DNA from: a phage
NCBI GenBank assembly: GCA_036439915.1
Contig: GCA_036439915.1_3065.1
Direction: 5' to 3' (one strand)
DNA length: 64,000 nucleotides
Shown: one piece after another, positions 3,796 to 49,356 of the stretch
Layout: every line of letters begins with the position of its first letter
How positions within the stretch are numbered: the first letter of the stretch is position 1
Position numbers and translations under genes: made by a program
Notes under the pieces: generated by a model
What the model saw: only the letters and a program-made list of their open reading frames with translations
Databases searched by the model: none
Told to the model about the DNA's origin: nothing

Positions 3796-3816
3796 ATTTA
3801 GCTCCTTTATTTATCA

Positions 3817-38789: not shown

Positions 38790-38797
38790 TATAAATA
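38790..38797 (+). promoter_or_regulatory. late promoter TATAAATA for gene 34
   Basis: exact TATAAATA about 35 nt upstream of gene 34 ATG. Confidence 0.6.
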
Positions 38798-38831: not shown

Positions 38832-41800
38832 ATGGCCGAGATTAAAAGAAAGTTCAGAGCAGAAGATGGTCTGGACGCAGGTGGTGATAAAATAATCAAC
38901 GTAGCTTTAGCTGATCGTGCCGTAGGAACTGACGGTGTTAACGTTGATTACTTAATTCAAGAAAACACAGTTCAACAATATGATCCAACTCGTGGATATT
39001 TAAAAGATTTTGTAATCATTTATGATAACCGCTTTTGGGCTGCTATAAATGATATTCCAAAACCAGCAGGAGCTTTTAATAGCGTACGATGGAGAGCGTT
39101 ACGCACTGATGCAAACTGGACAACTGTTTCGTCAGGACCTTATCAATTAAAATCAGGCGAATCGATTTCAGTTAACACCGCAGCGGGTAATGACATTACA
39201 TTTACTTTGCCATCTTCTCCAATTGATGGTGATACTATCGTTCTCCAAGATATTGGAGGAAAACCTGGAGTTAACCAGGTTTTAATTACAGCTCCGGTAC
39301 AAAGCATTGTAAACTTTAGAGGTCAACAAGTACGCTCAGTACTAATGACTCATCCAAAATCACAGATAGTTTTAATTTTTAGTAATCGTCTGTGGCAAAT
39401 GTATGTTGCTGATTATAGCAGAGAAGCTGTAGTTGTAACACCGGCGAGTCTTTATCAGGCGCAATCAAACGATTTTATCGTGCGTAGATTTACTTCTGCT
39501 TCAGCAATTAATATTAAACTTCCTAGATTTGCTAATCATGGGGATATTATTAATTTTGTTGATTTAGATAAATTAAATCCGTTATATCATACTATCGTTA
39601 CTACATACGATGAAACGACTTCAGTACAAGAAGTTGGAACTCATTCCATTGAAGGCCGTACATCTATTGATGGTTTCTTGATGTTTGATGATAATGAGAA
39701 ATTGTGGAGATTGTTTGACGGGGATAGTAAAGCACGTTTACGCATTATAACGACTAATTCTAATATTCGTCCAAATGAAGAAGTCATGGTATTTGGCGCG
39801 AATAATGGAACAACCCAAACAATTGAACTTCAGCTTCCAACTGATATTTCTATCGGTGATACTGTTAAGATTTCCATGAATTATATGAGAAAAGGACAAA
39901 CAGTTAAAATCAAAGCTGCCGGTGAAGATAAAATTGCTTCTTCAGTTCAATTGCTGCAATTTCCAAAACGTTCAGAATACCCACCTGAAACTAAATGGGT
40001 GACTGTTCAAGAATTAGTTTTTAATGGCGAAACCAATTATGTTCCAGTTTTACAGCTTGCTTATATCGAAGATTCCGATGGAAAATATTGGGTTGTACAG
40101 CAAAACGTTCCAACTGTAGAAAGAGTAGACTCTTTAAATAATTCTACTAGAGCAAGATTAGGCGTAATTGCTTTAGCTACACAGGCTCAAGCTAATGCTG
40201 ATCTAGAAAATTCTCCACAAAAAGAACTGGCAATTACTCCAGAAACGTTAGCTAATCGTACTGCTACAGAAACTCGTAGAGGTATTGCAAGAATAGCAAC
40301 AACTGCGCAAGTAAACCAGGATACCACATTCTCTTTTGCAGATGACCTTATCATCACTCCTAAAAAGTTGAATGAAAGAACTGCTACAGAAACTCGTAGG
40401 GGTGTCGCTGAAATTGCTACGCAGCAAGAAACAAACACAGGAACAGATGATACAACCATCATTACTCCTAAAAAGCTTCAAGCTCGTCAAGGTTCTGAAT
40501 CATTATCTGGTATTGTAACTTTTGTATCTACTGCAGGTGCTACTCCGGCTTCTAGCCGTGAATTAAATGGTACAAATGTTTATAATAAAAACACTAATAA
40601 CTTAGTTGTTTCGCCAAAAGCTTTGGACCAGTATAAAGCTACGCCTACTCAACAGGGTGCAGTAATTTTAGCAGTTGAAAGTGAAGTAATTGCTGGACAA
40701 AGTCAGGAAGGATGGGCAAATGCTGTTGTAACGCCAGAAACGTTACATAAAAAGACATCAACTGATGGAAGAATTGGTTTAATTGAAATTGCTACGCAAA
40801 GTGAAGTTAATACAGGAACTGATTATACTCGTGCAGTCACTCCTAAAACTTTAAATGACCGTAGAGCAACTGAAAGTTTAAGTGGTATAGCTGAAATTGC
40901 TACACAAGTTGAATTCGACGCAGGCGTCGACGATACTCGTATCTCTACACCATTAAAAATTAAAACTAGATTTAATAGTACTGATCGTACTTCTGTTGTT
41001 GCTCTATCTGGATTAGTTGAATCAGGAACTCTCTGGGACCATTATACCCTTAATATTCTTGAAGCAAATGAGACACAACGTGGTACACTTCGTGTGGCTA
41101 CACAAGTTGAAGCTGCTGCTGGAAAATTAGATAATGTTTTAATAACTCCTAAAAAGCTTTTAGGTACTAAATCTACTGAAGCACAAGAAGGTGTTATTAA
41201 AGTTGCAACACAAACCGAAACTGTTGCTGGAACATCGGCAAATACTGCTGTATCTCCAAAAAATTTAAAATGGATTGTGCAGAGTGAACCTACTTGGGCA
41301 GCTACTACTGCAGTAAGAGGCTTTGTTAAAACTTCATCTGGTTCAATTACATTCGTTGGTAATGATACAGCCGGTTCTACTCAGGACTTAGAGCTATACG
41401 AGAAAAATAGCTATGCAGTATCACCATACGAATTAAACCGTGTATTAGCAAATTATTTGCCATTAAAAGCAAAAGCTGCAGATAGTAATTTATTGGATGG
41501 TCTAGATTCATCTCAGTTCATTCGTAGGGATATTGCGCAGACGGTTAATGGTTCACTAACCTTAACTCAACAAACGAATCTGAGTGCCCCTCTTGTATCA
41601 TCTAGTACTGCTACGTTCGGTGGATCAGTTTCAGCAAATAGTACATTAACTATTTCTAATACTGGAACAGCAACTCGATTGATTTTTGAGAAAGGACCTC
41701 AAACTGGAACAAACCCAGCCCAAACGATGACTGTTAGAGTGTGGGGAAATCAATTTAGTGGGGAATTAGATACAACACGTTCTACCGTATTTGAAGTTAG

Positions 41801-42701
41801 TGATGAAACATCTAGTCATTTTTATTCTCAGCGCAATAAAGCCGGAAATATAACATTTAATATCAACGGTACAGTAACACCGATAAATGTTAATGCTTCA
41901 GGAACATTGAATGCAAATGGCGTAGCAACATTTGGTAATTCAGTCACTGCAACTGGTGAAATTATTTCTCGAAGCGCAAATGCTTTCCGTGCTATTAACG
42001 GAAATTACGGTTTCATTGTTCGCAATGATGGATCAGTAACGAATTTTATGCTTACTGCATCGGGTGATCAGACTGGTGGATTTAATGGATTACGCCCATT
42101 AGCTATTAATAATGCATCTGGCCAAGTAACGATTGGTGAAAGCTTAATCATTGCCAAAGGTGCTACTATAAATTCAGGTGGTTTGACTGTTAACTCGAGA
42201 ATTCGTTCTCAAGGTACTAAAACATCTGACTTATATACACGTGCGCCAACATCTGATACTGTAGGATTCTGGTCAATTGATATTAACGATTCAGCTACTT
42301 ATAACCAGTTCCCAGGTTATTTTAAAATGGTTGAAAAAACTAATGAAGTGACTGGTCTTCCATATTTAGAACGTGGCGAAGAAGTTAAATCTCCTGGTAC
42401 ACTGACTCAGTTTGGTAACACACTTGATTCGCTTTACCAAGATTGGATTACTTATCCAACAACGCCAGAGGCGCGTACCACTCGCTGGACACGTACATGG
42501 CAGAAAACCAAAAATTCTTGGTCAAGTTTTGTTCAGGTATTTGATGGAGGTAACCCTCCTCAACCGTCTGATATCGGTGCTTTACCATCTGATAATGCTA
42601 CAATGGGTAATCTTACTATTCGTGATTTCTTACGAATTGGTAATGTTCGCATTATTCCTGACCCAGTGAATAAAACTGTTAAATTTGAATGGGTTGAATA
42701 A
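38832..42701 (+). CDS. 34: long tail fibre proximal subunit gp34
   Basis: 1289-aa ORF, same length as T4 gp34; internal tandem repeats. Confidence 0.93.
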   Translation: MAEIKRKFRAEDGLDAGGDKIINVALADRAVGTDGVNVDYLIQENTVQQYDPTRGYLKDFVIIYDNRFWAAINDIPKPAGAFNSVRWRALRTDANWTTVSSGPYQLKSGESISVNTAAGNDITFTLPSSPIDGDTIVLQDIGGKPGVNQVLITAPVQSIVNFRGQQVRSVLMTHPKSQIVLIFSNRLWQMYVADYSREAVVVTPASLYQAQSNDFIVRRFTSASAINIKLPRFANHGDIINFVDLDKLNPLYHTIVTTYDETTSVQEVGTHSIEGRTSIDGFLMFDDNEKLWRLFDGDSKARLRIITTNSNIRPNEEVMVFGANNGTTQTIELQLPTDISIGDTVKISMNYMRKGQTVKIKAAGEDKIASSVQLLQFPKRSEYPPETKWVTVQELVFNGETNYVPVLQLAYIEDSDGKYWVVQQNVPTVERVDSLNNSTRARLGVIALATQAQANADLENSPQKELAITPETLANRTATETRRGIARIATTAQVNQDTTFSFADDLIITPKKLNERTATETRRGVAEIATQQETNTGTDDTTIITPKKLQARQGSESLSGIVTFVSTAGATPASSRELNGTNVYNKNTNNLVVSPKALDQYKATPTQQGAVILAVESEVIAGQSQEGWANAVVTPETLHKKTSTDGRIGLIEIATQSEVNTGTDYTRAVTPKTLNDRRATESLSGIAEIATQVEFDAGVDDTRISTPLKIKTRFNSTDRTSVVALSGLVESGTLWDHYTLNILEANETQRGTLRVATQVEAAAGKLDNVLITPKKLLGTKSTEAQEGVIKVATQTETVAGTSANTAVSPKNLKWIVQSEPTWAATTAVRGFVKTSSGSITFVGNDTAGSTQDLELYEKNSYAVSPYELNRVLANYLPLKAKAADSNLLDGLDSSQFIRRDIAQTVNGSLTLTQQTNLSAPLVSSSTATFGGSVSANSTLTISNTGTATRLIFEKGPQTGTNPAQTMTVRVWGNQFSGELDTTRSTVFEVSDETSSHFYSQRNKAGNITFNINGTVTPINVNASGTLNANGVATFGNSVTATGEIISRSANAFRAINGNYGFIVRNDGSVTNFMLTASGDQTGGFNGLRPLAINNASGQVTIGESLIIAKGATINSGGLTVNSRIRSQGTKTSDLYTRAPTSDTVGFWSIDINDSATYNQFPGYFKMVEKTNEVTGLPYLERGEEVKSPGTLTQFGNTLDSLYQDWITYPTTPEARTTRWTRTWQKTKNSWSSFVQVFDGGNPPQPSDIGALPSDNATMGNLTIRDFLRIGNVRIIPDPVNKTVKFEWVE
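40200..41320 (+). repeat. intragenic tandem repeats in gene 34
   Basis: repeated peptide motif (I/V)TPKKL..R.ATE(T/S)..G.A.IATQ at least 7 times. Confidence 0.7.
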
Positions 42702-42709
42702 GAGGTATT

Positions 42710-43825
42710 ATGGAAAAATTTATGGCAGAGTTTGGACAAGGATATGTCCAAACGCCATTTTTATCGGAAAGCAATTCAGTAAGATATAAAATAAGCATAG
42801 CGGGTTCTTGCCCGCTTTCTACAGCAGGACCATACGTTAAATTTCAAGATAATCCTGTAGGAAGTCAAACATTTAGTGCAGGTCTTCATTTAAGAGTTTT
42901 TGACCCTTCTACAGGAGCATTGGTTGATAGTAAGTCATATGTTTTTTCTACTTCAAATGATACAACATCTGCTGCTTTTGTTAGTTTCATGAATTCTTTT
43001 TCAAGCAATAGACTTGTTGCTATATTAACTAGCGGAAAGGTTAATTTTCCTCCTGAAGTAGTATCTTGGTTAAGAACGGCAGGAACATCTGCTTTTCCAT
43101 CTGATTCTTTATTGTCAAGATTTGACGTATCATATGCTGCCTTTTACACTTCTTCTAAAAGAGCTATCGCACTAGAGCATGTTAAACTGAGTAACAGAAA
43201 AAGCACAGATGACTATCAAACTATATTAGATGTAGTATTTGATAGTTTAGAAGATGTTGGAGCGACAGGATTTCCTAAAAGAACATATGAAAGCGTTGAG
43301 CAATTTATGTCAGCTGTTGGTGGAACTAATAACGAAATTGCATGTCTACCTACAGCATCTGCAATAAGTAAACTTTCTGACTATAATTTAATTCCTGGAG
43401 ATGTTCTTTATCTTAAAGCACAACTATATGCTGATGCTGATTTATTAGCGTTGGGAACTACTAATATTTCAATTCGTTTTTATAATGCGTCGAATGGATA
43501 TATTTCCTCGACACAAGCTGAGTTTACCGGACAAGCTGGGTCTTGGGAATTAAAAGAAGATTATGTAGTTGTTCCAGAAAATGCAGTTGGATTTACGATA
43601 TACGCACAGAGAACTGCACAAGCGGGTCAAGGCGGTATGAGAAATTTAAGCTTTTCTGAAGTGTCAAGAAATGGTGGCATTTCAAAACCTGCTGAGTTTG
43701 GCGTCAATGGTATTCGAGTTAATTATATCTGTGAATCTGCTTCACCTCCGGATATAATGGTACTTCCTACGCAAGCATCGTCTAAAACTGGTAAAGTGTT
43801 TGGACAGGAATTTAGAGAAGTTTAA
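42710..43825 (+). CDS. 35: long tail fibre hinge protein gp35
   Basis: 371-aa ORF; synteny. Confidence 0.88.
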   Translation: MEKFMAEFGQGYVQTPFLSESNSVRYKISIAGSCPLSTAGPYVKFQDNPVGSQTFSAGLHLRVFDPSTGALVDSKSYVFSTSNDTTSAAFVSFMNSFSSNRLVAILTSGKVNFPPEVVSWLRTAGTSAFPSDSLLSRFDVSYAAFYTSSKRAIALEHVKLSNRKSTDDYQTILDVVFDSLEDVGATGFPKRTYESVEQFMSAVGGTNNEIACLPTASAISKLSDYNLIPGDVLYLKAQLYADADLLALGTTNISIRFYNASNGYISSTQAEFTGQAGSWELKEDYVVVPENAVGFTIYAQRTAQAGQGGMRNLSFSEVSRNGGISKPAEFGVNGIRVNYICESASPPDIMVLPTQASSKTGKVFGQEFREV

Positions 43826-43856: not shown

Positions 43857-43862
43857 TATAAA
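43855..43862 (+). promoter_or_regulatory. late promoter TATAAATA for gene 36
   Basis: exact TATAAATA 25 nt upstream of gene 36 ATG. Confidence 0.6.
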
Positions 43863-43887
43863 TACTATTAAAATAAAGGGGCATACA

Positions 43888-44544
43888 ATGGCTGATTTAA
43901 AAGTAGGTTCAACAACTGGAGGCTCTGTCATTTGGCATCAAGGAAATTTTCCATTGAATCCAGCCGGTGACGATGTACTCTATAAATCATTTAAAATATA
44001 TTCAGAATATAATAAACCACAAGCTGCTGATAACGATTTCGTTTCTAAAGCTAATGGTGGTACATATTTAAATAAAGTAATTTTTAATAAAGGAATGACT
44101 GTTCCTGGTGCTGGGTCAGGTGACAACGGTATTTTTGCCGGTCCTGGTGATAATGCTACATATGATACTACAAATATGGATATTGTTTCATGGTATGGTA
44201 TCGGCTTTAAATCATCACAAGGGGCAGCAGGTAGAACTGTAGTAATTAACACACGAAACGGAGATATTAGCTCAAAGGGTGTAATTGAAGCATCACAAAT
44301 ACGCGCAACTTCGTTATCACCAGTAAATAATTATGACCTTACGAGAAAAGATTATGTTGATGGAGCAATAAATATTGTTACAACAAATGCAAACTCTAGA
44401 GTATTACGCTCTGGAGACACTATGACAGGAAATTTAACTGCGCCAAACCTTTTTTCACAGAATCCTGCATCTCAACCCTCGCATGTTCCGCGATTTGACC
44501 AAATCGTAATTAAGGATTCTGTTCAAGATTTCGGCTATTATTAA
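43888..44544 (+). CDS. 36: long tail fibre distal connector gp36
   Basis: 218-aa ORF; synteny. Confidence 0.88.
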   Translation: MADLKVGSTTGGSVIWHQGNFPLNPAGDDVLYKSFKIYSEYNKPQAADNDFVSKANGGTYLNKVIFNKGMTVPGAGSGDNGIFAGPGDNATYDTTNMDIVSWYGIGFKSSQGAAGRTVVINTRNGDISSKGVIEASQIRATSLSPVNNYDLTRKDYVDGAINIVTTNANSRVLRSGDTMTGNLTAPNLFSQNPASQPSHVPRFDQIVIKDSVQDFGYY

Positions 44545-44552
44545 GAGGACTT

Positions 44553-47500
44553 ATGGCTACTTTAAAACAAATACAATTTAAAAGAAGCAAAACGGCAGGT
44601 CAACGTCCAGCTGCTTCAGTATTAGCCGAAGGTGAATTGGCTATAAACTTAAAAGATCGTGTACTTTTTACTAAAGATGATCAAGGAAATATTATTGACT
44701 TAGGTTTTGCTAAAGGCGGTAGTATTGATGGGAATGTTATTCATAAAGGCAATTATAACCAAACTGGCGATTATACTTTAAACGGTACATTCGCCCAGAC
44801 TGGTAATTTTAATTTAACCGGTATTGCTCGAGTAACTCGTGATATTATTGCTGCTGGGCAGATTATGACTGAAGGCGGAGAACTTATTACAAAAAGTTCA
44901 GGAACGGCACACGTTCGTTTTCATGATTCCGCCGACCGTGAACGCGGTATTATTTTTTCTCCTGCTAATGACGGTTTAACTACACAAGTAGTTAACATCA
45001 GAGTTCAAGATTACAAAGCTGGTTCAGAAAGCACTTTCGCTTTTAATGGAAATGGTTTGTTTTCTTCACCAGAAGTTTTTGGGTGGAAATCTGTATCAAC
45101 TCCGGTAATTTATACCAATAAAGTTATCACCAATAAAAAAGTTAAAGATGATTATGACATCTATTCGATGGCAGACAATGTTCCATTGTCTGAAAGCACT
45201 ACTGCTATTAATCATCTTCGTGTTATGCGTAATGCAGTTGGTTCTGGTATTTTCCATGAAGTTAAAGATAATGATGGAATAACATGGTATAGTGGAGATG
45301 GATTAGACGCTTATCTTTGGTCATTTACTTGGAGCGGCGGAATTAAATCAAGTCACTCAATTTCCATCGGTTTAACACCCGGACCTAAGGATTACTCAAT
45401 ATTAGGACCGTCTAGTATCGCTTTAGGAGATAATGATACTGGATTTAAATGGCATCAAGACGGATATTATTTCAGTGTTAACAATGGCACAAAAACGTTT
45501 TTATTTAGTCCCAGCGAAACAACTAGCCTAAGAAAATTTGTAGCTGGATATTCTACTAACGGAACCGATTTAACTACTCCTCCAACTGAAAATTATGCTC
45601 TTGCTACTGTAGTGACATACCATGATAATAACGCGTTTGGGGATGGTCAGACTCTTTTAGGATATTATCAAGGCGGTAACTATCATCATTATTTCCGCGG
45701 CAAGGGCACTACAAACATTAATACTCACGGCGGTTTGTTAGTTACTCCAGGCAATATTGACGTTATTGGTGGTTCTGTTAATATCGATGGTAGAAATAAT
45801 GCTTCTACAGCGATGTTTAAAGGTAACACAACAGGTAGTAGTTCTGTGGATAACATGACAATTTCTGTGTGGGGTAATACATTTACTAATCCTAGCGAAG
45901 GTAATCGCAAAAATGTCATGGAAATTTCCGATGCAACTAGCTGGATGAGCTATATTCAAAGACTTACTACTGGTGAAGTAGAAATGAACGTTAACGGTTC
46001 ATTTGAATCATCTGGTGTTACTGCTGGAAATAGAGGAGTTCACACAACAGGCGAAATTTCATCTGGAGCAGTGAATGCTCTTCGCATTTGGAATGCAGAT
46101 TATGGAGCCATTTTTAGACGTTCAGAAGGTAGTCTTCATATTATTCCAACTGCTTATGGTGAAGGCAAAAATGGTGATATTGGTCCACTTCGTCCATTTA
46201 GCATAGCTTTAGATACTGGTAAGGTTGTTATTCCAGATTTAGAATCAAGTTATAACACGTTTGCTGCAAATGGCTACATTAAATTTGCTGGTCATGGGGC
46301 TGGTGCCGGCGGTTATGATATTCAGTATTCACAAGCTGCTCCTATTTTCCAAGAAATCGATGATGCTGCTGTAAGCAAATATTATCCTATTGTTAAACAG
46401 AAGTTTTTAAACGGTAAAGCTGTCTGGTCTTTAGGTACTGAAATTAATTCAGGTACATTTGTTTTACATCATCTAAAAGAAGATGGTTCACAAGGCCATA
46501 CATCAAGATTTAATGCTGATGGTACAGTTAATTTCCCCGATAATGTTCAAGTCGGCGGCGGTGAAGCTACTATTGCTCGTAATGGTAATATCTTCTCTGA
46601 TATTTGGAAAACATTTACTTCTGCCGGAGAAACCACAAATATTCGCGATGCAATAGCTACTCGTGTTTCTAAAGAAGGCGACACGATGACTGGTAAATTG
46701 ACTTTATCAGCAGGCAATGATGCTCTCGTTTTAACTGCGGGCGAAGGTGCTTCATCACATATCCGTAGTGATGTAGGTGGTACAAATAACTGGTATATAG
46801 GCAAAGGTGGCGGCGACAGCGGTCTAGGTTTTTACAGTTACATTACACAGGGTGGTGTATACATAACAAATAACGGCGAAATATCGCTTTCTCCTCAAGG
46901 TCAAGGAACATTTAATTTTAATAGAGATCGCATTCATATAAATGGCACACAATGGACTGCACACCAAGCTGGTGATTGGGGAAACCAATGGCGACAAGAA
47001 GCGCCGATATTTGTAGATTTTGGCAATGTCGGTAATGATAGTTATTACCCGATTATCAAAGGAAAATCTGGTATTACTAATGAAGGATACATATCGGGTG
47101 TTGATTTTGGTATGCGACGCACTACTAACCAATGGGCTCAGGCTATTATCCGTGTTGGTAACCAGGAAAATGGTTCTGACCCACAAGCTATCTATGAATT
47201 TCACCACAATGGAGTTCTGTATGCTCCTAATATGGTTCAAGCTGGAGCAAGATTATCAGCTGGCGGTGGTGACCCTGTATGGACCGGCCCGTGTCTTGTT
47301 ATTGGTGATAATGATACTGGATTAGTTCATGGTGGTGACGGCCGAATCAATATGGTTGCAAATGGTGTGCATATTGCTTCGTGGTCTTCATCTTATCAGT
47401 CTCATCCTGGCCTTTGGGATTCAAACGGTGCTTTTTGGACAGAAGTTGGAAGAGCTATCGTTTCTCATGGGCATCTCGTTCAGGCAAATGATAGTTATTC

Positions 47501-47864
47501 AACGTTTGTCCGTGATGTTTATGTCCGTTCTGATATTCGTGTTAAAAAGGACCTAGTTAAATTTGAAAATGCTTCTGAGAAGCTTTCAAAAATTAATGGT
47601 TACACTTATATGCAGAAGCGAGGCCTAGATGAAGAAGGTAATCAGAAATGGGAACCAAACGCTGGGTTAATTGCTCAAGAAGTTCAAGCTATTTTACCTG
47701 AATTGGTTGAAGGCGATCAGGATAGTGAAGCTTTACTTCGTTTGAACTATAACGGTGTAATTGGTTTAAATACAGCTGCAATCAATGAGCATACTGCAGA
47801 AATTGCAGAACTTAAGTCAGAGATTGAAGAGCTTAAAAAATTAGTTAAATCATTGTTAAAATAA
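44553..47864 (+). CDS. 37: long tail fibre distal subunit gp37 with C-terminal intramolecular chaperone-like domain
   Basis: 1103-aa ORF; C-terminal ~110 aa has SDIRVKK then coiled-coil, resembling self-cleaving peptidase-S74 tails. Confidence 0.9.
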
Positions 47865-47869
47865 AATGA

Positions 47870-47883
47870 GGGGCTTCGGCCCC
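47870..47883 (+). terminator. UUCG-loop hairpin between genes 37 and 38
   Basis: ggggc-ttcg-gcccc directly before GGAGG RBS of gene 38; no T tract. Confidence 0.4.
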
Positions 47884-47895
47884 TTGGAGGTTTAT

Positions 47896-48669
47896 ATGGC
47901 AGTTGAAGGACCGTGGGTAGGATGGTCTGCGAGGGTACAAACTGGAGACCCTTGGATGGGTGGTGCCGCACAGAGATTGAGAATGGGAATTCCGTTTTGG
48001 ATGAGTAATATGATAGGTCGATCTGTTGAAGTAATTCACACGCTTGGAGCAGACCATAACTTCAATGGTCAATGGTTCCGAGATAGATGTTTTGAGGCAG
48101 GTAGTACACCTATAGTGTTTAATATCACTGGAGATTTAGTATCATATTCTAAAGATGTTCCTTTATTCTTCATGTACGGAGATACACCGAATGAATATGT
48201 TCAGTTGAATATACACGGCGTAACGATGTATGGACGTGGCGGGAATGGCGGTAGCAATAGTCCCGGATCGGCTGGGGGTCATTGTATTCAAAATGATATT
48301 GGTGGAAGACTAAGAATTAATAATGGCGGAGCTATTGCAGGCGGCGGTGGCGGCGGCGGCGGCGGTAACTACGGTAGACTATCATTTGGTGGTGGTGGTG
48401 GTCGCCCATTCGGTGCTGGCGGGTCTTCCTCTCATATGGGTGCTGGTGCAACCGCTGGCACCATTTCCGCTCCGGGTGCAGGATCTGTCGGTAAGGGGTC
48501 TCTTTGGGTATATACAGGCGGGAATGGCGGTGAAGTTGGCTCAGCAGGAGGTAGATGTAATATTCATGGGAACGGTACAGAATATAACGGTGGTGCTGCT
48601 GGTTATGCCGTCATAGGGTCTACACCGACATGGCAAAACGTTGGAGCAATATATGGTCCAAGAGTATAA
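47896..48669 (+). CDS. 38: T2-type receptor-recognising adhesin gp38
   Basis: 257 aa from MAVEGPW; conserved N-terminus, glycine-rich motifs, poly-Gly run. Confidence 0.85.
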
Positions 48670-48699: not shown

Positions 48700-49356
48700 A
48701 TGGCAGCACCTAGAATATCATTTTCGCCCTCTGATATTCTGTTGGGTGTTCTAGATCGCTTGTTCAAAGATAACGCTACCGGGAAGGTTCTTGCTTCCCG
48801 AGTAGCTGTCGTAATTCTTTTGTTTATAATGGCGATTGTTTGGTATAGGGGAGATAGTTTCTTTGAGTACTATAAGCAATCAAAGTATGAAACATACAGT
48901 GAAATTATTGAAAAGGAAAGAAATGCACGCTTTGAATCTGTCGCCCTGGAACAACTCCAGATAGTTCACATATCATCTGAGGCAGACTTTAGTGCGGTGT
49001 ATTCTTTCCGCCCTAAAAACTTAAACTATTTTGTTGATATTATAGCATATGAAGGAAAATTACCTTCAACAATAAGCGAAAAATCACTTGGAGGATATCC
49101 TGTTGATAAAACTATGGATGAATATACAGTTCATTTAAATGGACGTCATTATTATTCCAACTCAAAATTTGCTTTTTTACCAACTAAAAAGCCTACTCCC
49201 GAAATAAATTACATGTACAGTTGTCCATATTTCAATTTGGATAATATCTATGCTGGAACAATAACCATGTACTGGTATAGAAATGATCATATAAGTAATG
49301 ACCGCCTTGAATCAATATGTTCTCAGGCGGCCAGAATATTAGGAAGGGCTAAATAA
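48700..49356 (+). CDS. t: holin T
   Basis: 218-aa ORF recognised as T4 T holin; single N-proximal TM. Confidence 0.93.
   Translation: MAAPRISFSPSDILLGVLDRLFKDNATGKVLASRVAVVILLFIMAIVWYRGDSFFEYYKQSKYETYSEIIEKERNARFESVALEQLQIVHISSEADFSAVYSFRPKNLNYFVDIIAYEGKLPSTISEKSLGGYPVDKTMDEYTVHLNGRHYYSNSKFAFLPTKKPTPEINYMYSCPYFNLDNIYAGTITMYWYRNDHISNDRLESICSQAARILGRAK

Follow-up and report, generated by a model that had tools for sequence, protein, structure and literature searches.

The gp37-gp38 host-range system of T2-type phages, in which gp37 ends in an intramolecular chaperone (IMC) and the fibre is capped by a separate adhesin, gp38, is textbook knowledge (Drexler 1986; Trojet 2011; Dunne 2018); genetic work on it dates back to the 1980s, its solved structures include 6F45 and 9V85, and it now serves to predict receptor specificity and to re-engineer it. 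Biochemical work of 1986 (Drexler) demonstrated that T2 gp37 is processed at its C-terminus, and PMC3157838 takes this as established for T2 and T6, with capping by gp38 following. For phage S16, PMC7917993, citing Dunne 2018, describes the last 113 residues of gp37 as an IMC that is autocleaved at DLNVS^SDRRIKK after trimerisation, and only this cleavage exposes the docking surface for gp38 (PMC7917993). Three tryptophans of S16 gp38 insert into three pockets of the gp37 trimer, and its glycine-rich motifs (GRMs) are polyglycine-II (PGII) helices packed as a sandwich, with 151-GGGGGGGG-158 as the central helix 3 (PMC6851490). The pattern of GRMs and hypervariable segments (HVSs) is classical for gp38 (PMC3157838), and the HVSs set receptor choice in these adhesins (PMC3157838, PMC12032242, bioRxiv 10.64898/2026.04.02.716166). 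Here we analysed genes 37 and 38 of a T4-like phage, located at positions 44553-48669 of a 64,000-nucleotide stretch of DNA (hereafter the window; GenBank assembly GCA_036439915.1, contig GCA_036439915.1_3065.1).

We read this locus, with a probability of roughly 0.93, as the host-range module at the distal end of a Tequatrovirus long tail fibre, organised as in T2, T6 and S16 and not as in T4. According to this reading, gp37 would be made as a 1103-residue precursor, the C-terminal 111 residues of which (the Peptidase_S74 chaperone) would nucleate trimerisation of the beta-helical fibre; autoproteolysis by Ser993 and Lys998 at R992|S993 would shed the domain and expose the DVYVR tip. One gp38 monomer of 257 residues would dock on the trimer tip through W7, W20 and W35 of its N-terminal helical domain, and its GRMs would pack as a PGII sandwich; an outer-membrane protein would be bound by the hypervariable loops that this sandwich displays. 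Computed here are the domain content, the motifs, the homologies, the mosaicism and the conservation of glycine-run length; specific to this sequence are its particular chimera, a K200 substitution in gp38, and a corrected g38 start.

The gp37 precursor and its C-terminal domain

Gene 37 (44553-47864; this and all features below are on the + strand), assigned from its open reading frame (ORF) and by homology, encodes the long tail fibre distal subunit precursor of 1103 aa and 118.9 kDa. A first-pass annotation, made by a model from the sequence alone, had described a gp37 that ends in SDIRVKK followed by a heptad-like coiled coil, and both elements were recovered. SDIRVKK occupies residues 993-999 (47529-47549), 111 residues from the C-terminus, and the last 27 residues (I1077-K1103, 47781-47861) form four terminal heptads, with I, I, I, V at positions a and H, L, L, L at positions d, in what would be the C-terminal helix of the IMC. 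Within this helix, a 21-nt tandem repeat detected by Tandem Repeats Finder (TRF) at 47797-47836 is the DNA counterpart of the heptads.

The region that begins with this motif matches the Pfam family Peptidase_S74 (PF13884, "chaperone of endosialidase") over residues 993-1052, with 48.4 bits against a cut-off of 22 (E 1.2e-12), and the match spans profile positions 1-57 of 58. In a sequence search of the PDB, residues 914-1103 aligned with the S16 gp37 crystal fragment 6F45_A (E 4e-43), residues 914-992 aligning to its beta-helix. The last 121 residues alone retrieved 6F45_A with E 1.2e-34 and, weakly, the ICA domain of MYRF, a recognised S74 relative, with E 0.012 (7DC3). Profile score, a Ser/Lys(+5) pair and a C-terminal position with a coiled coil thus all agree with the IMC family, to which we assign residues 993-1103 (47529-47861; 12.4 kDa) from PF13884 and 6F45_A, with release predicted after trimerisation.

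The proposal of the first-pass annotation that this domain is of the self-cleaving type is supported by the Peptidase_S74 match together with the alignment to the cleavage site of S16. DVYVR|S993-DIRV-K998-K aligns without a gap to the cleaved S16 site, with the Ser and Lys(+5) pair kept, and this places the predicted autocleavage site at R992|S993 (47529-47546; S993 at 47529-47531, K998 at 47544-47546). The motif DV[YQ][VI]R-SDxRxK was present in 27/27 gp37 genes found beside a gp38-type adhesin, including those of T2, T6, AR1, Sf23, Ac3, IME340 and IMG/VR contigs, with C-terminal fragments of 95-117 aa, and the flank DVYVR|SDIRVKK is identical in AR1, Sf23, Ac3, FL18 and others. By analogy with these relatives, the gp37 C-terminus is probably a self-cleaving IMC, and the predicted mature protein would comprise residues 1-992 (44553-47528; 106.5 kDa), ending in DVYVR, the strand that would form the docking tip for gp38, if cleavage occurs at the position described for S16 (PMC7917993).

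Non-cleaving S74 variants are conceivable, and such a domain could be retained on the fibre with gp38 attached elsewhere or not at all. We regard this as very unlikely for the present gp37, in which Ser993 and Lys998 stand at the canonical +5 spacing within a flank shared with AR1, Sf23, Ac3 and FL18 and aligned gap-free to a site that is cleaved. Its partner gp38 also conserves the docking tryptophans, and in S16 the surface that receives them is exposed only after cleavage (PMC7917993).

In the shaft of the fibre, gp37 residues 449-551 (45897-46205) match the Gp34_trimer-like domain (Pfam PF21446, 33.9 bits). The C-terminal trimerisation domain of gp34 is known from the T4 structures 4UXE and 5NXF, to which the same residues align with E ~1e-12. 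The presence of the PF21446 match inside gp37 therefore points to modules that are common to the proximal and distal half-fibres.

The gp38 adhesin and its predicted receptor

The mechanically called ORF that follows g37 extends from 47866 to 48669. We place the g38 start at ATG 47896, 5 nt past the Shine-Dalgarno sequence GGAGG, rather than at ATG 47866, which adjoins and partly overlaps an intergenic hairpin, because ORF residue 11 is where the Pfam N-terminal domain begins and the equivalent ATG is the annotated start in four deposited records. Gene 38 (47896-48669) therefore encodes a protein of 257 aa (25.9 kDa; 25% glycine), a receptor-recognising adhesin according to its Pfam matches and PDB homologues. 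It matches GP38 (PF05268) with 232.2 bits over profile positions 1-218 of 218 and Gp38_N (PF21721) with 71.6 bits over positions 1-40 of 40, and it retrieved 9V85, the structure of the PP01 receptor-binding domain (E 7e-79), and 6F45_D, the full-length gp38 of S16 (E 1e-52).

These matches bear on whether the locus could be of the T4 type. The receptor-binding tip of T4 is part of gp37 itself, and T4 gp38, an unrelated protein, acts as a chaperone and is missing from the virion. An equivalent arrangement here, with a receptor-binding tip at the gp37 C-terminus and gp38 as an assembly chaperone absent from virions, has in its favour the legacy name of T6 gp38 ('distal long tail fiber assembly catalyst') and some cluster names. 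It is effectively refuted by the assignment of gp38 to the adhesin families PF05268 and PF21721 and to the structures 6F45_D and 9V85, and by the gp37 C-terminus being an S74 chaperone instead of a receptor-binding domain. The PDB sequence search with full gp37 returned S16 gp37 and gp34 domains only, and no T4 gp37-like receptor-binding tip was among its matches.

We examined the T2/T6/S16-type adhesin in two alignments, the first with the gp38 proteins of T2, T6, AR1, Sf23, Ac3, FL18, FL23 and UoN_LDJ77_1, and the second adding M1, AV119, FL08, IME340 and HMD-9; M1, FL18, IME340, AV119 and FL08 served as OmpA reference adhesins. The N-terminal attachment domain (approximately residues 1-50, 47896-48045), recognised by Gp38_N, is of the AR1/Sf23/Ac3 type and contains W7, W20 and W35, which were invariant throughout the first alignment, T2, T6 and AR1 included. 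The first-pass annotation had called this N-terminus conserved within the T2 family, which holds at family level but not for T2 itself: residues 1-50 are 100% identical to Sf23, FL18 and FL23, 84% to AR1, 56% to IME340 and M1, 52% to T6, and only 38% to T2.

Downstream of the attachment domain, five invariant GRMs alternate with four HVSs in both alignments, and glycine makes up 38% of residues 113-240. This agrees with the glycine-rich motifs noted from the sequence alone, and the comparison with T2 and T6 adhesins that had been suggested shows the four HVSs. With approximate bounds following the scheme of Trojet 2011, GRM1 (GRGGNGG) covers residues 113-119 (48232-48252). GRM2 is a run of nine glycines, G149-G157, at 48340-48366, where the first-pass annotation had located a ggc/ggt repeat at about 48340-48370, and is followed by HVS2 (NYGRLSF, residues 158-164, 48367-48387) and by GRM3 (48388-48423), the five-Gly run of which is encoded by (ggt)5 at 48388-48402, as also detected by TRF. 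HVS3 (residues 177-208, 48424-48519) contains K200 (AAG, 48493-48495), and GRM4 (48520-48555), HVS4 (48556-48591) and GRM5 (48592-48606) lead into a conserved C-terminal strand (48607-48666) that returns to the beta-helix. By alignment, G149-G157 corresponds to PGII helix 3, the central helix, of S16 gp38, and full-length homology to 6F45_D and 9V85 suggests that the protein as a whole would adopt the PGII sandwich fold. Identity to other receptor classes is only 0-33% in HVS2-4, against invariant GRMs; this layout, together with the experiments on relatives (PMC3157838, PMC12032242), supports the earlier proposal that the variable segments between the Gly motifs would set the receptor.

The specificity domain (residues 113-257) of this gp38 is 99% identical to that of IME340 (OmpA), with HVS2 100% identical, and 84% identical to that of FL18 (OmpA), with HVS2 at 57%. 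The corresponding values are 81% and 33% for FL23 (Tsx), 80% and 33% for T6 (Tsx), 67% and 7% for M1 (OmpA), 53% and 0% for AR1 (OmpC), 53% and 0% for Sf23, and 49% and 8% for T2 (FadL). From residue 51 to residue 257 there is one difference from IME340, HMD-9 and UoN_LDJ77_1, namely K200, where all three have Glu, as does the family cluster P0002. IME340 selects ompA mutants and neither infects nor adsorbs to an ompA deletion strain, both being rescued by complementation (PMC6499177), and FL18 is an OmpA-dependent "type 2" phage (PMC12032242). Because residues 51-257 match OmpA-dependent IME340 save for K200, and FL18 has the same HVS subtype, the receptor is most likely E. coli OmpA, recognised in the manner of the 'type 2' IME340/FL18-like group.

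Although nothing contradicts this overall interpretation, cleavage, the stoichiometry of gp38 (3:1 docking) and the receptor (OmpA binding), as well as the PGII fold, are all transferred from relatives, and the boundaries of GRMs and HVSs are approximate, having been read off the alignments. K200 is a charge reversal in HVS3; its exact 51-nt context was found in 0 of 50,697 phage records, the best match being 98% identical with one mismatch. Within the same segment of other adhesins, the substitution Q206L switches RB51/RB68 between OmpF and OmpW (bioRxiv 10.64898/2026.04.02.716166). Because of K200, and because single HVS3 substitutions can switch receptor, the OmpA assignment is less certain than the architecture.

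The adhesin would accordingly not use OmpA if K200 had shifted its receptor, or it might recognise another set of OmpA alleles. That K200 is the sole difference from IME340 after residue 50, in a context absent from the phage collection and at a position that varies across the family (E 27, S 4, V 3, P 2, K 2, N 1), would be consistent with such a shift, as would the ability of single HVS3 changes to switch receptor. We nevertheless consider it unlikely, given that 144/145 residues of the specificity domain are shared with an OmpA-dependent phage and that most published single HVS changes do not replace the existing specificity but modulate or extend it (PMC3157838). The practical value of the OmpA prediction, as of the g38 start at 47896 and the predicted gp37 maturation site R992|S993, lies in annotation, and a likely OmpA receptor would be useful if the phage were considered for therapy or cocktail design.

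Mosaic structure and the polyglycine run

Sliding-window nucleotide identity showed that g37 is 99-100% identical to Sf23/AR1 over most of its length, and that g37 together with the gp38 docking domain is about 99% Sf23/AR1-like. Similarity to Sf23/AR1 drops from about 48150 and falls to 43-49% from about 48360 on, and the Sf23 megablast alignment ends at query position 3807, that is nt 48359, inside the Gly run of GRM2. From 48200 to 48669, the specificity-domain DNA is instead closest to HMD-9 (99.1%), IME340 (97.7%) and UoN_LDJ77_1 (97.4%) by megablast. The five-way sliding identity from MAFFT understates UoN_LDJ77_1 at the 3' end of g38 (87-97%), owing to alignment around the Gly runs, and megablast and protein alignment were used there. 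The attachment domain of IME340 and HMD-9 is of the other type, with 52-56% identity over residues 1-50. By these comparisons the module is recombinant: an Sf23/AR1-like lineage contributed g37 and the matching docking domain of gp38, an IME340/HMD-9-like lineage contributed the specificity domain, and the exchange lies in the GRM1-GRM2 region. A divergent patch of about 220 nt just 5' of the gp37 tip (about 47250-47470), with 74-90% sliding identity to Sf23, AR1, Ac3 and UoN_LDJ77_1, is on the same kind of evidence a second, small and separate mosaic patch in the distal fibre; the best match for 47230-47560 was NBEco003 (96.1%).

Across 23 loci, the types of the gp37 tip (47496-47549 here) and of the gp38 N-terminus (47896-48045) were perfectly linked. 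The RDVYVR|SDIRVKK tip occurred with a MAV[ET]GPWVG N-terminus in 11/11 loci, and tips of the xDVYIR, xNVYIR or xDVQIR form occurred with an N-terminus of the MAVVG..GWIG type (MAVVG[VI]PGWIG) in the other 12/12, while HVS sets were found with either attachment type. In PP01, the N-terminal 113 residues of gp38 must match the gp37 that is capped (PMC12892980), and swaps confined to the part "from HVS2 onwards" have been observed directly in engineered crosses. The linkage and the crosses therefore indicate that g37 and the docking module move together, and that swaps of the specificity module take place at the conserved Gly motifs. Modular exchange of this kind has already been described by Trojet and colleagues (PMC3157838) and in earlier work from the same laboratory; the present locus is a clean illustration of it, in which the docking domain stays with its own gp37 and the specificity domain has been exchanged.

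The Sf23 alignment ends within the repeat that the first-pass annotation had expected to be a hotspot of length variation, an expectation that is not well supported. The nine codons of GRM2 read (ggc)2 ggt (ggc)5 ggt, with GGC at 7/9, and TRF reported a period of 3 and 8.7 copies; the repeat is interrupted, with at most five pure GGC units. Anchoring on GRM3 allowed the GRM2 run to be scored in 113 of 120 family cluster representatives, among which it comprised nine glycines in 52, eight in 38, seven in 11, six in nine, five in two and four in one. Nine glycines were found in every NxGRLxF-type sequence examined, this gp38 included, and in every T6-type sequence examined, and adhesins with the HVS2 types IAYRPHSGANWQDI and YSQANNWAGKYVC had mostly eight. 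Among relatives the nine codons vary synonymously (ggc/ggt/gga) and their count stays at nine. Such codon turnover at a fixed count therefore argues for selection on length and not for free slippage, and selection on length fits both the role of a central PGII helix and the finding that deletions of GRM2-4 or HVS1-3 in T6 were not recoverable (PMC3157838).

The alternative, in which the (GGC)n tract is a hypermutable microsatellite whose frequent in-frame slippage diversifies adhesin length and host range, can point to a true trinucleotide repeat by TRF and to run lengths of 4-9 across the family, as well as to rare rearrangements anchored on glycine codons. Run length is nonetheless specific to subtype and fixed at nine in the NxGRLxF and T6 types despite synonymous codon change, the repeat is interrupted, the T6 deletions could not be recovered, and the S16 run forms the central PGII helix within a tightly packed lattice (PMC6851490). 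Short-read assemblies are the main source of the deletion and fusion variants, which may be artefacts. Taken together, these points make slippage as a source of diversity quite unlikely. A reading of the microsatellite as a contingency locus was rejected, the repeat being in-frame, interrupted and conserved in length.

Rearranged adhesins were observed in a few sequences. A T6-type gp38 of 277 aa at 4001-4834 of contig L002 (IMGVR_UViG_2974787500_000001) carries a perfect tandem duplication of GGGGG-YYSPFSQMRLTF, that is of a GRM with HVS2, and from its sequence is the clearest case of a rearrangement mediated by Gly-coding runs. Three cluster representatives (P0017, P0028 and P0029) lack HVS2, with GRM2 joined straight to GRM3, and in a 303-aa protein from an E. 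coli assembly (P0083) gp38 residues 1-155 are fused at the poly-Gly run to a gp37 C-terminus that includes the IMC. Some of these rearranged variants may be artefacts of short-read assembly at the repeat.

Mosaic junctions and the rare duplications and deletions of HVS2 suggest that the Gly runs mediate recombination, and they appear to act as recombination anchors and not as a hypervariable microsatellite. A further, tentative possibility, to which we attach little confidence, is that K200, set in an IME340-type OmpA domain on an AR1/Sf23-type (OmpC-lineage) fibre, is a natural host-range mutation that changes the OmpA loop alleles recognised or the receptor itself, the Gly-coding runs that flank the HVSs having been the recombination substrates behind the chimera.

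Gene layout and comparison with known systems

In the ORF list of the window, the long-tail-fibre cluster is complete, with g34 (38832-42701), g35 (42710-43825) and g36 (43888-44544) preceding g37 and g38, and holin t (48700-49356), the identity of which was confirmed by Pfam, following. The order is thus g34-g35-g36-g37-g38-t, with g38 directly 3' of the IMC-bearing g37 and 5' of t, and the deposited records of T2, T6, AR1, Sf23, IME340 and HMD-9 keep the same g37-g38-t order. The first 25 kb of the window are about 97% identical to many Tequatrovirus genomes. By megablast, the 4.1-kb locus had matches in 660 GenBank phage records, of which 123 covered at least 80% of the query in one single place.

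The T4 late-promoter consensus TATAAATA occurs at 43857-43864, 31 nt 5' of g36, with a second copy at 38790-38797, 42 nt 5' of g34, and a motif scan found none directly upstream of g35, g37 or g38. The copy before g36 probably drives late transcription of g36-g37-g38 as one unit, an assignment that draws on position and on knowledge of T4, because TATAAATA was not enriched above chance across the window (10 found against 8.5 expected). A stable intergenic hairpin at 47867-47886, UGAGGGGC-UUCG-GCCCCUUG, whose tetraloop is C(UUCG)G, follows the stop codon of g37 (47862-47864) and leads up to the Shine-Dalgarno sequence of g38 (47886-47890); the minimum free energy of 47855-47905 is -15.1 kcal/mol (z = -2.3), and some related records annotate a 'terminator' at this place. 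The hairpin may act on the g36-g37 message, by stabilising or attenuating it, or may modulate translation of g38.

In the 64-kb window, ARAGORN found no tRNA genes and all Rfam families stayed below their gathering thresholds; a T4-type tRNA cluster would therefore lie outside it. Local G+C reaches 0.50 at g38, against about 0.35-0.38 in the flanking genes, because gp38 is 25% glycine. GGC accounts for 24-25% of glycine codons in g37 and g38, 11-12% in g34-g36 and 0% in t. The hinge protein gp35 matches the Pfam family ILEI (PF15711, interleukin-like EMT inducer / FAM3 fold) over residues 58-127, with 31.1 bits against a threshold of 27.

Among known systems, T4 has its genes at the same positions and a fibre shaft that is homologous, but neither its own gp37 tip nor its chaperone-type gp38 is present here. 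Schulz et al. (2010) reportedly dealt with the Peptidase S74 domains, also called C-terminal intramolecular chaperones, that occur in phage endosialidases and tail fibres. The S74 chaperones of endosialidases and the MYRF ICA domain share with gp37 the PF13884 match, the Ser and Lys(+5) pair, a place at the very C-terminal end of a trimeric fibre, and C-terminal helical heptads. Unlike S74 tailspike maturation, the predicted release of the domain in gp37 would create a docking site for a separate adhesin.

T2 and T6 (Henning laboratory 1985-1991; Trojet et al. 2011) are the founding cases of gp37 processing and gp38 capping, with five GRMs, four HVSs and the order g36-g37-g38-t, although T2 gp38 is only 38-49% identical to the present protein and uses FadL/OmpF, and T6 combines a specificity domain that is 80% identical with Tsx-type HVS2 and HVS3. 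In the group of AR1, Sf23 and PP01 (OmpC-lineage gp38; 9V85), g37 is about 99-100% and the gp38 attachment domain 84-100% identical, and the RDVYVR|SDIRVKK tip is the same, whereas the AR1 and Sf23 specificity domains are only 53% identical and similarity ends in the GRM1-GRM2 region. The opposite combination is found in IME340 (vB_EcoM_IME340, MH051916) and HMD-9, which have nearly the same specificity domain but the other attachment type and an NDVYIR-type gp37 tip. UoN_LDJ77_1 has the same attachment type, with a g37 only 67-80% identical over 44900-45400. S16 gp37-gp38 (6F45; Dunne et al. 2018) differs in its Salmonella OmpC receptor, its unrelated HVSs, its different gp37 shaft, a central run of eight glycines against nine here, and a Ser in place of Arg before the cleaved Ser, but has the same two-gene architecture, cleavage motif, docking tryptophans and GRM/HVS layout as the present locus.

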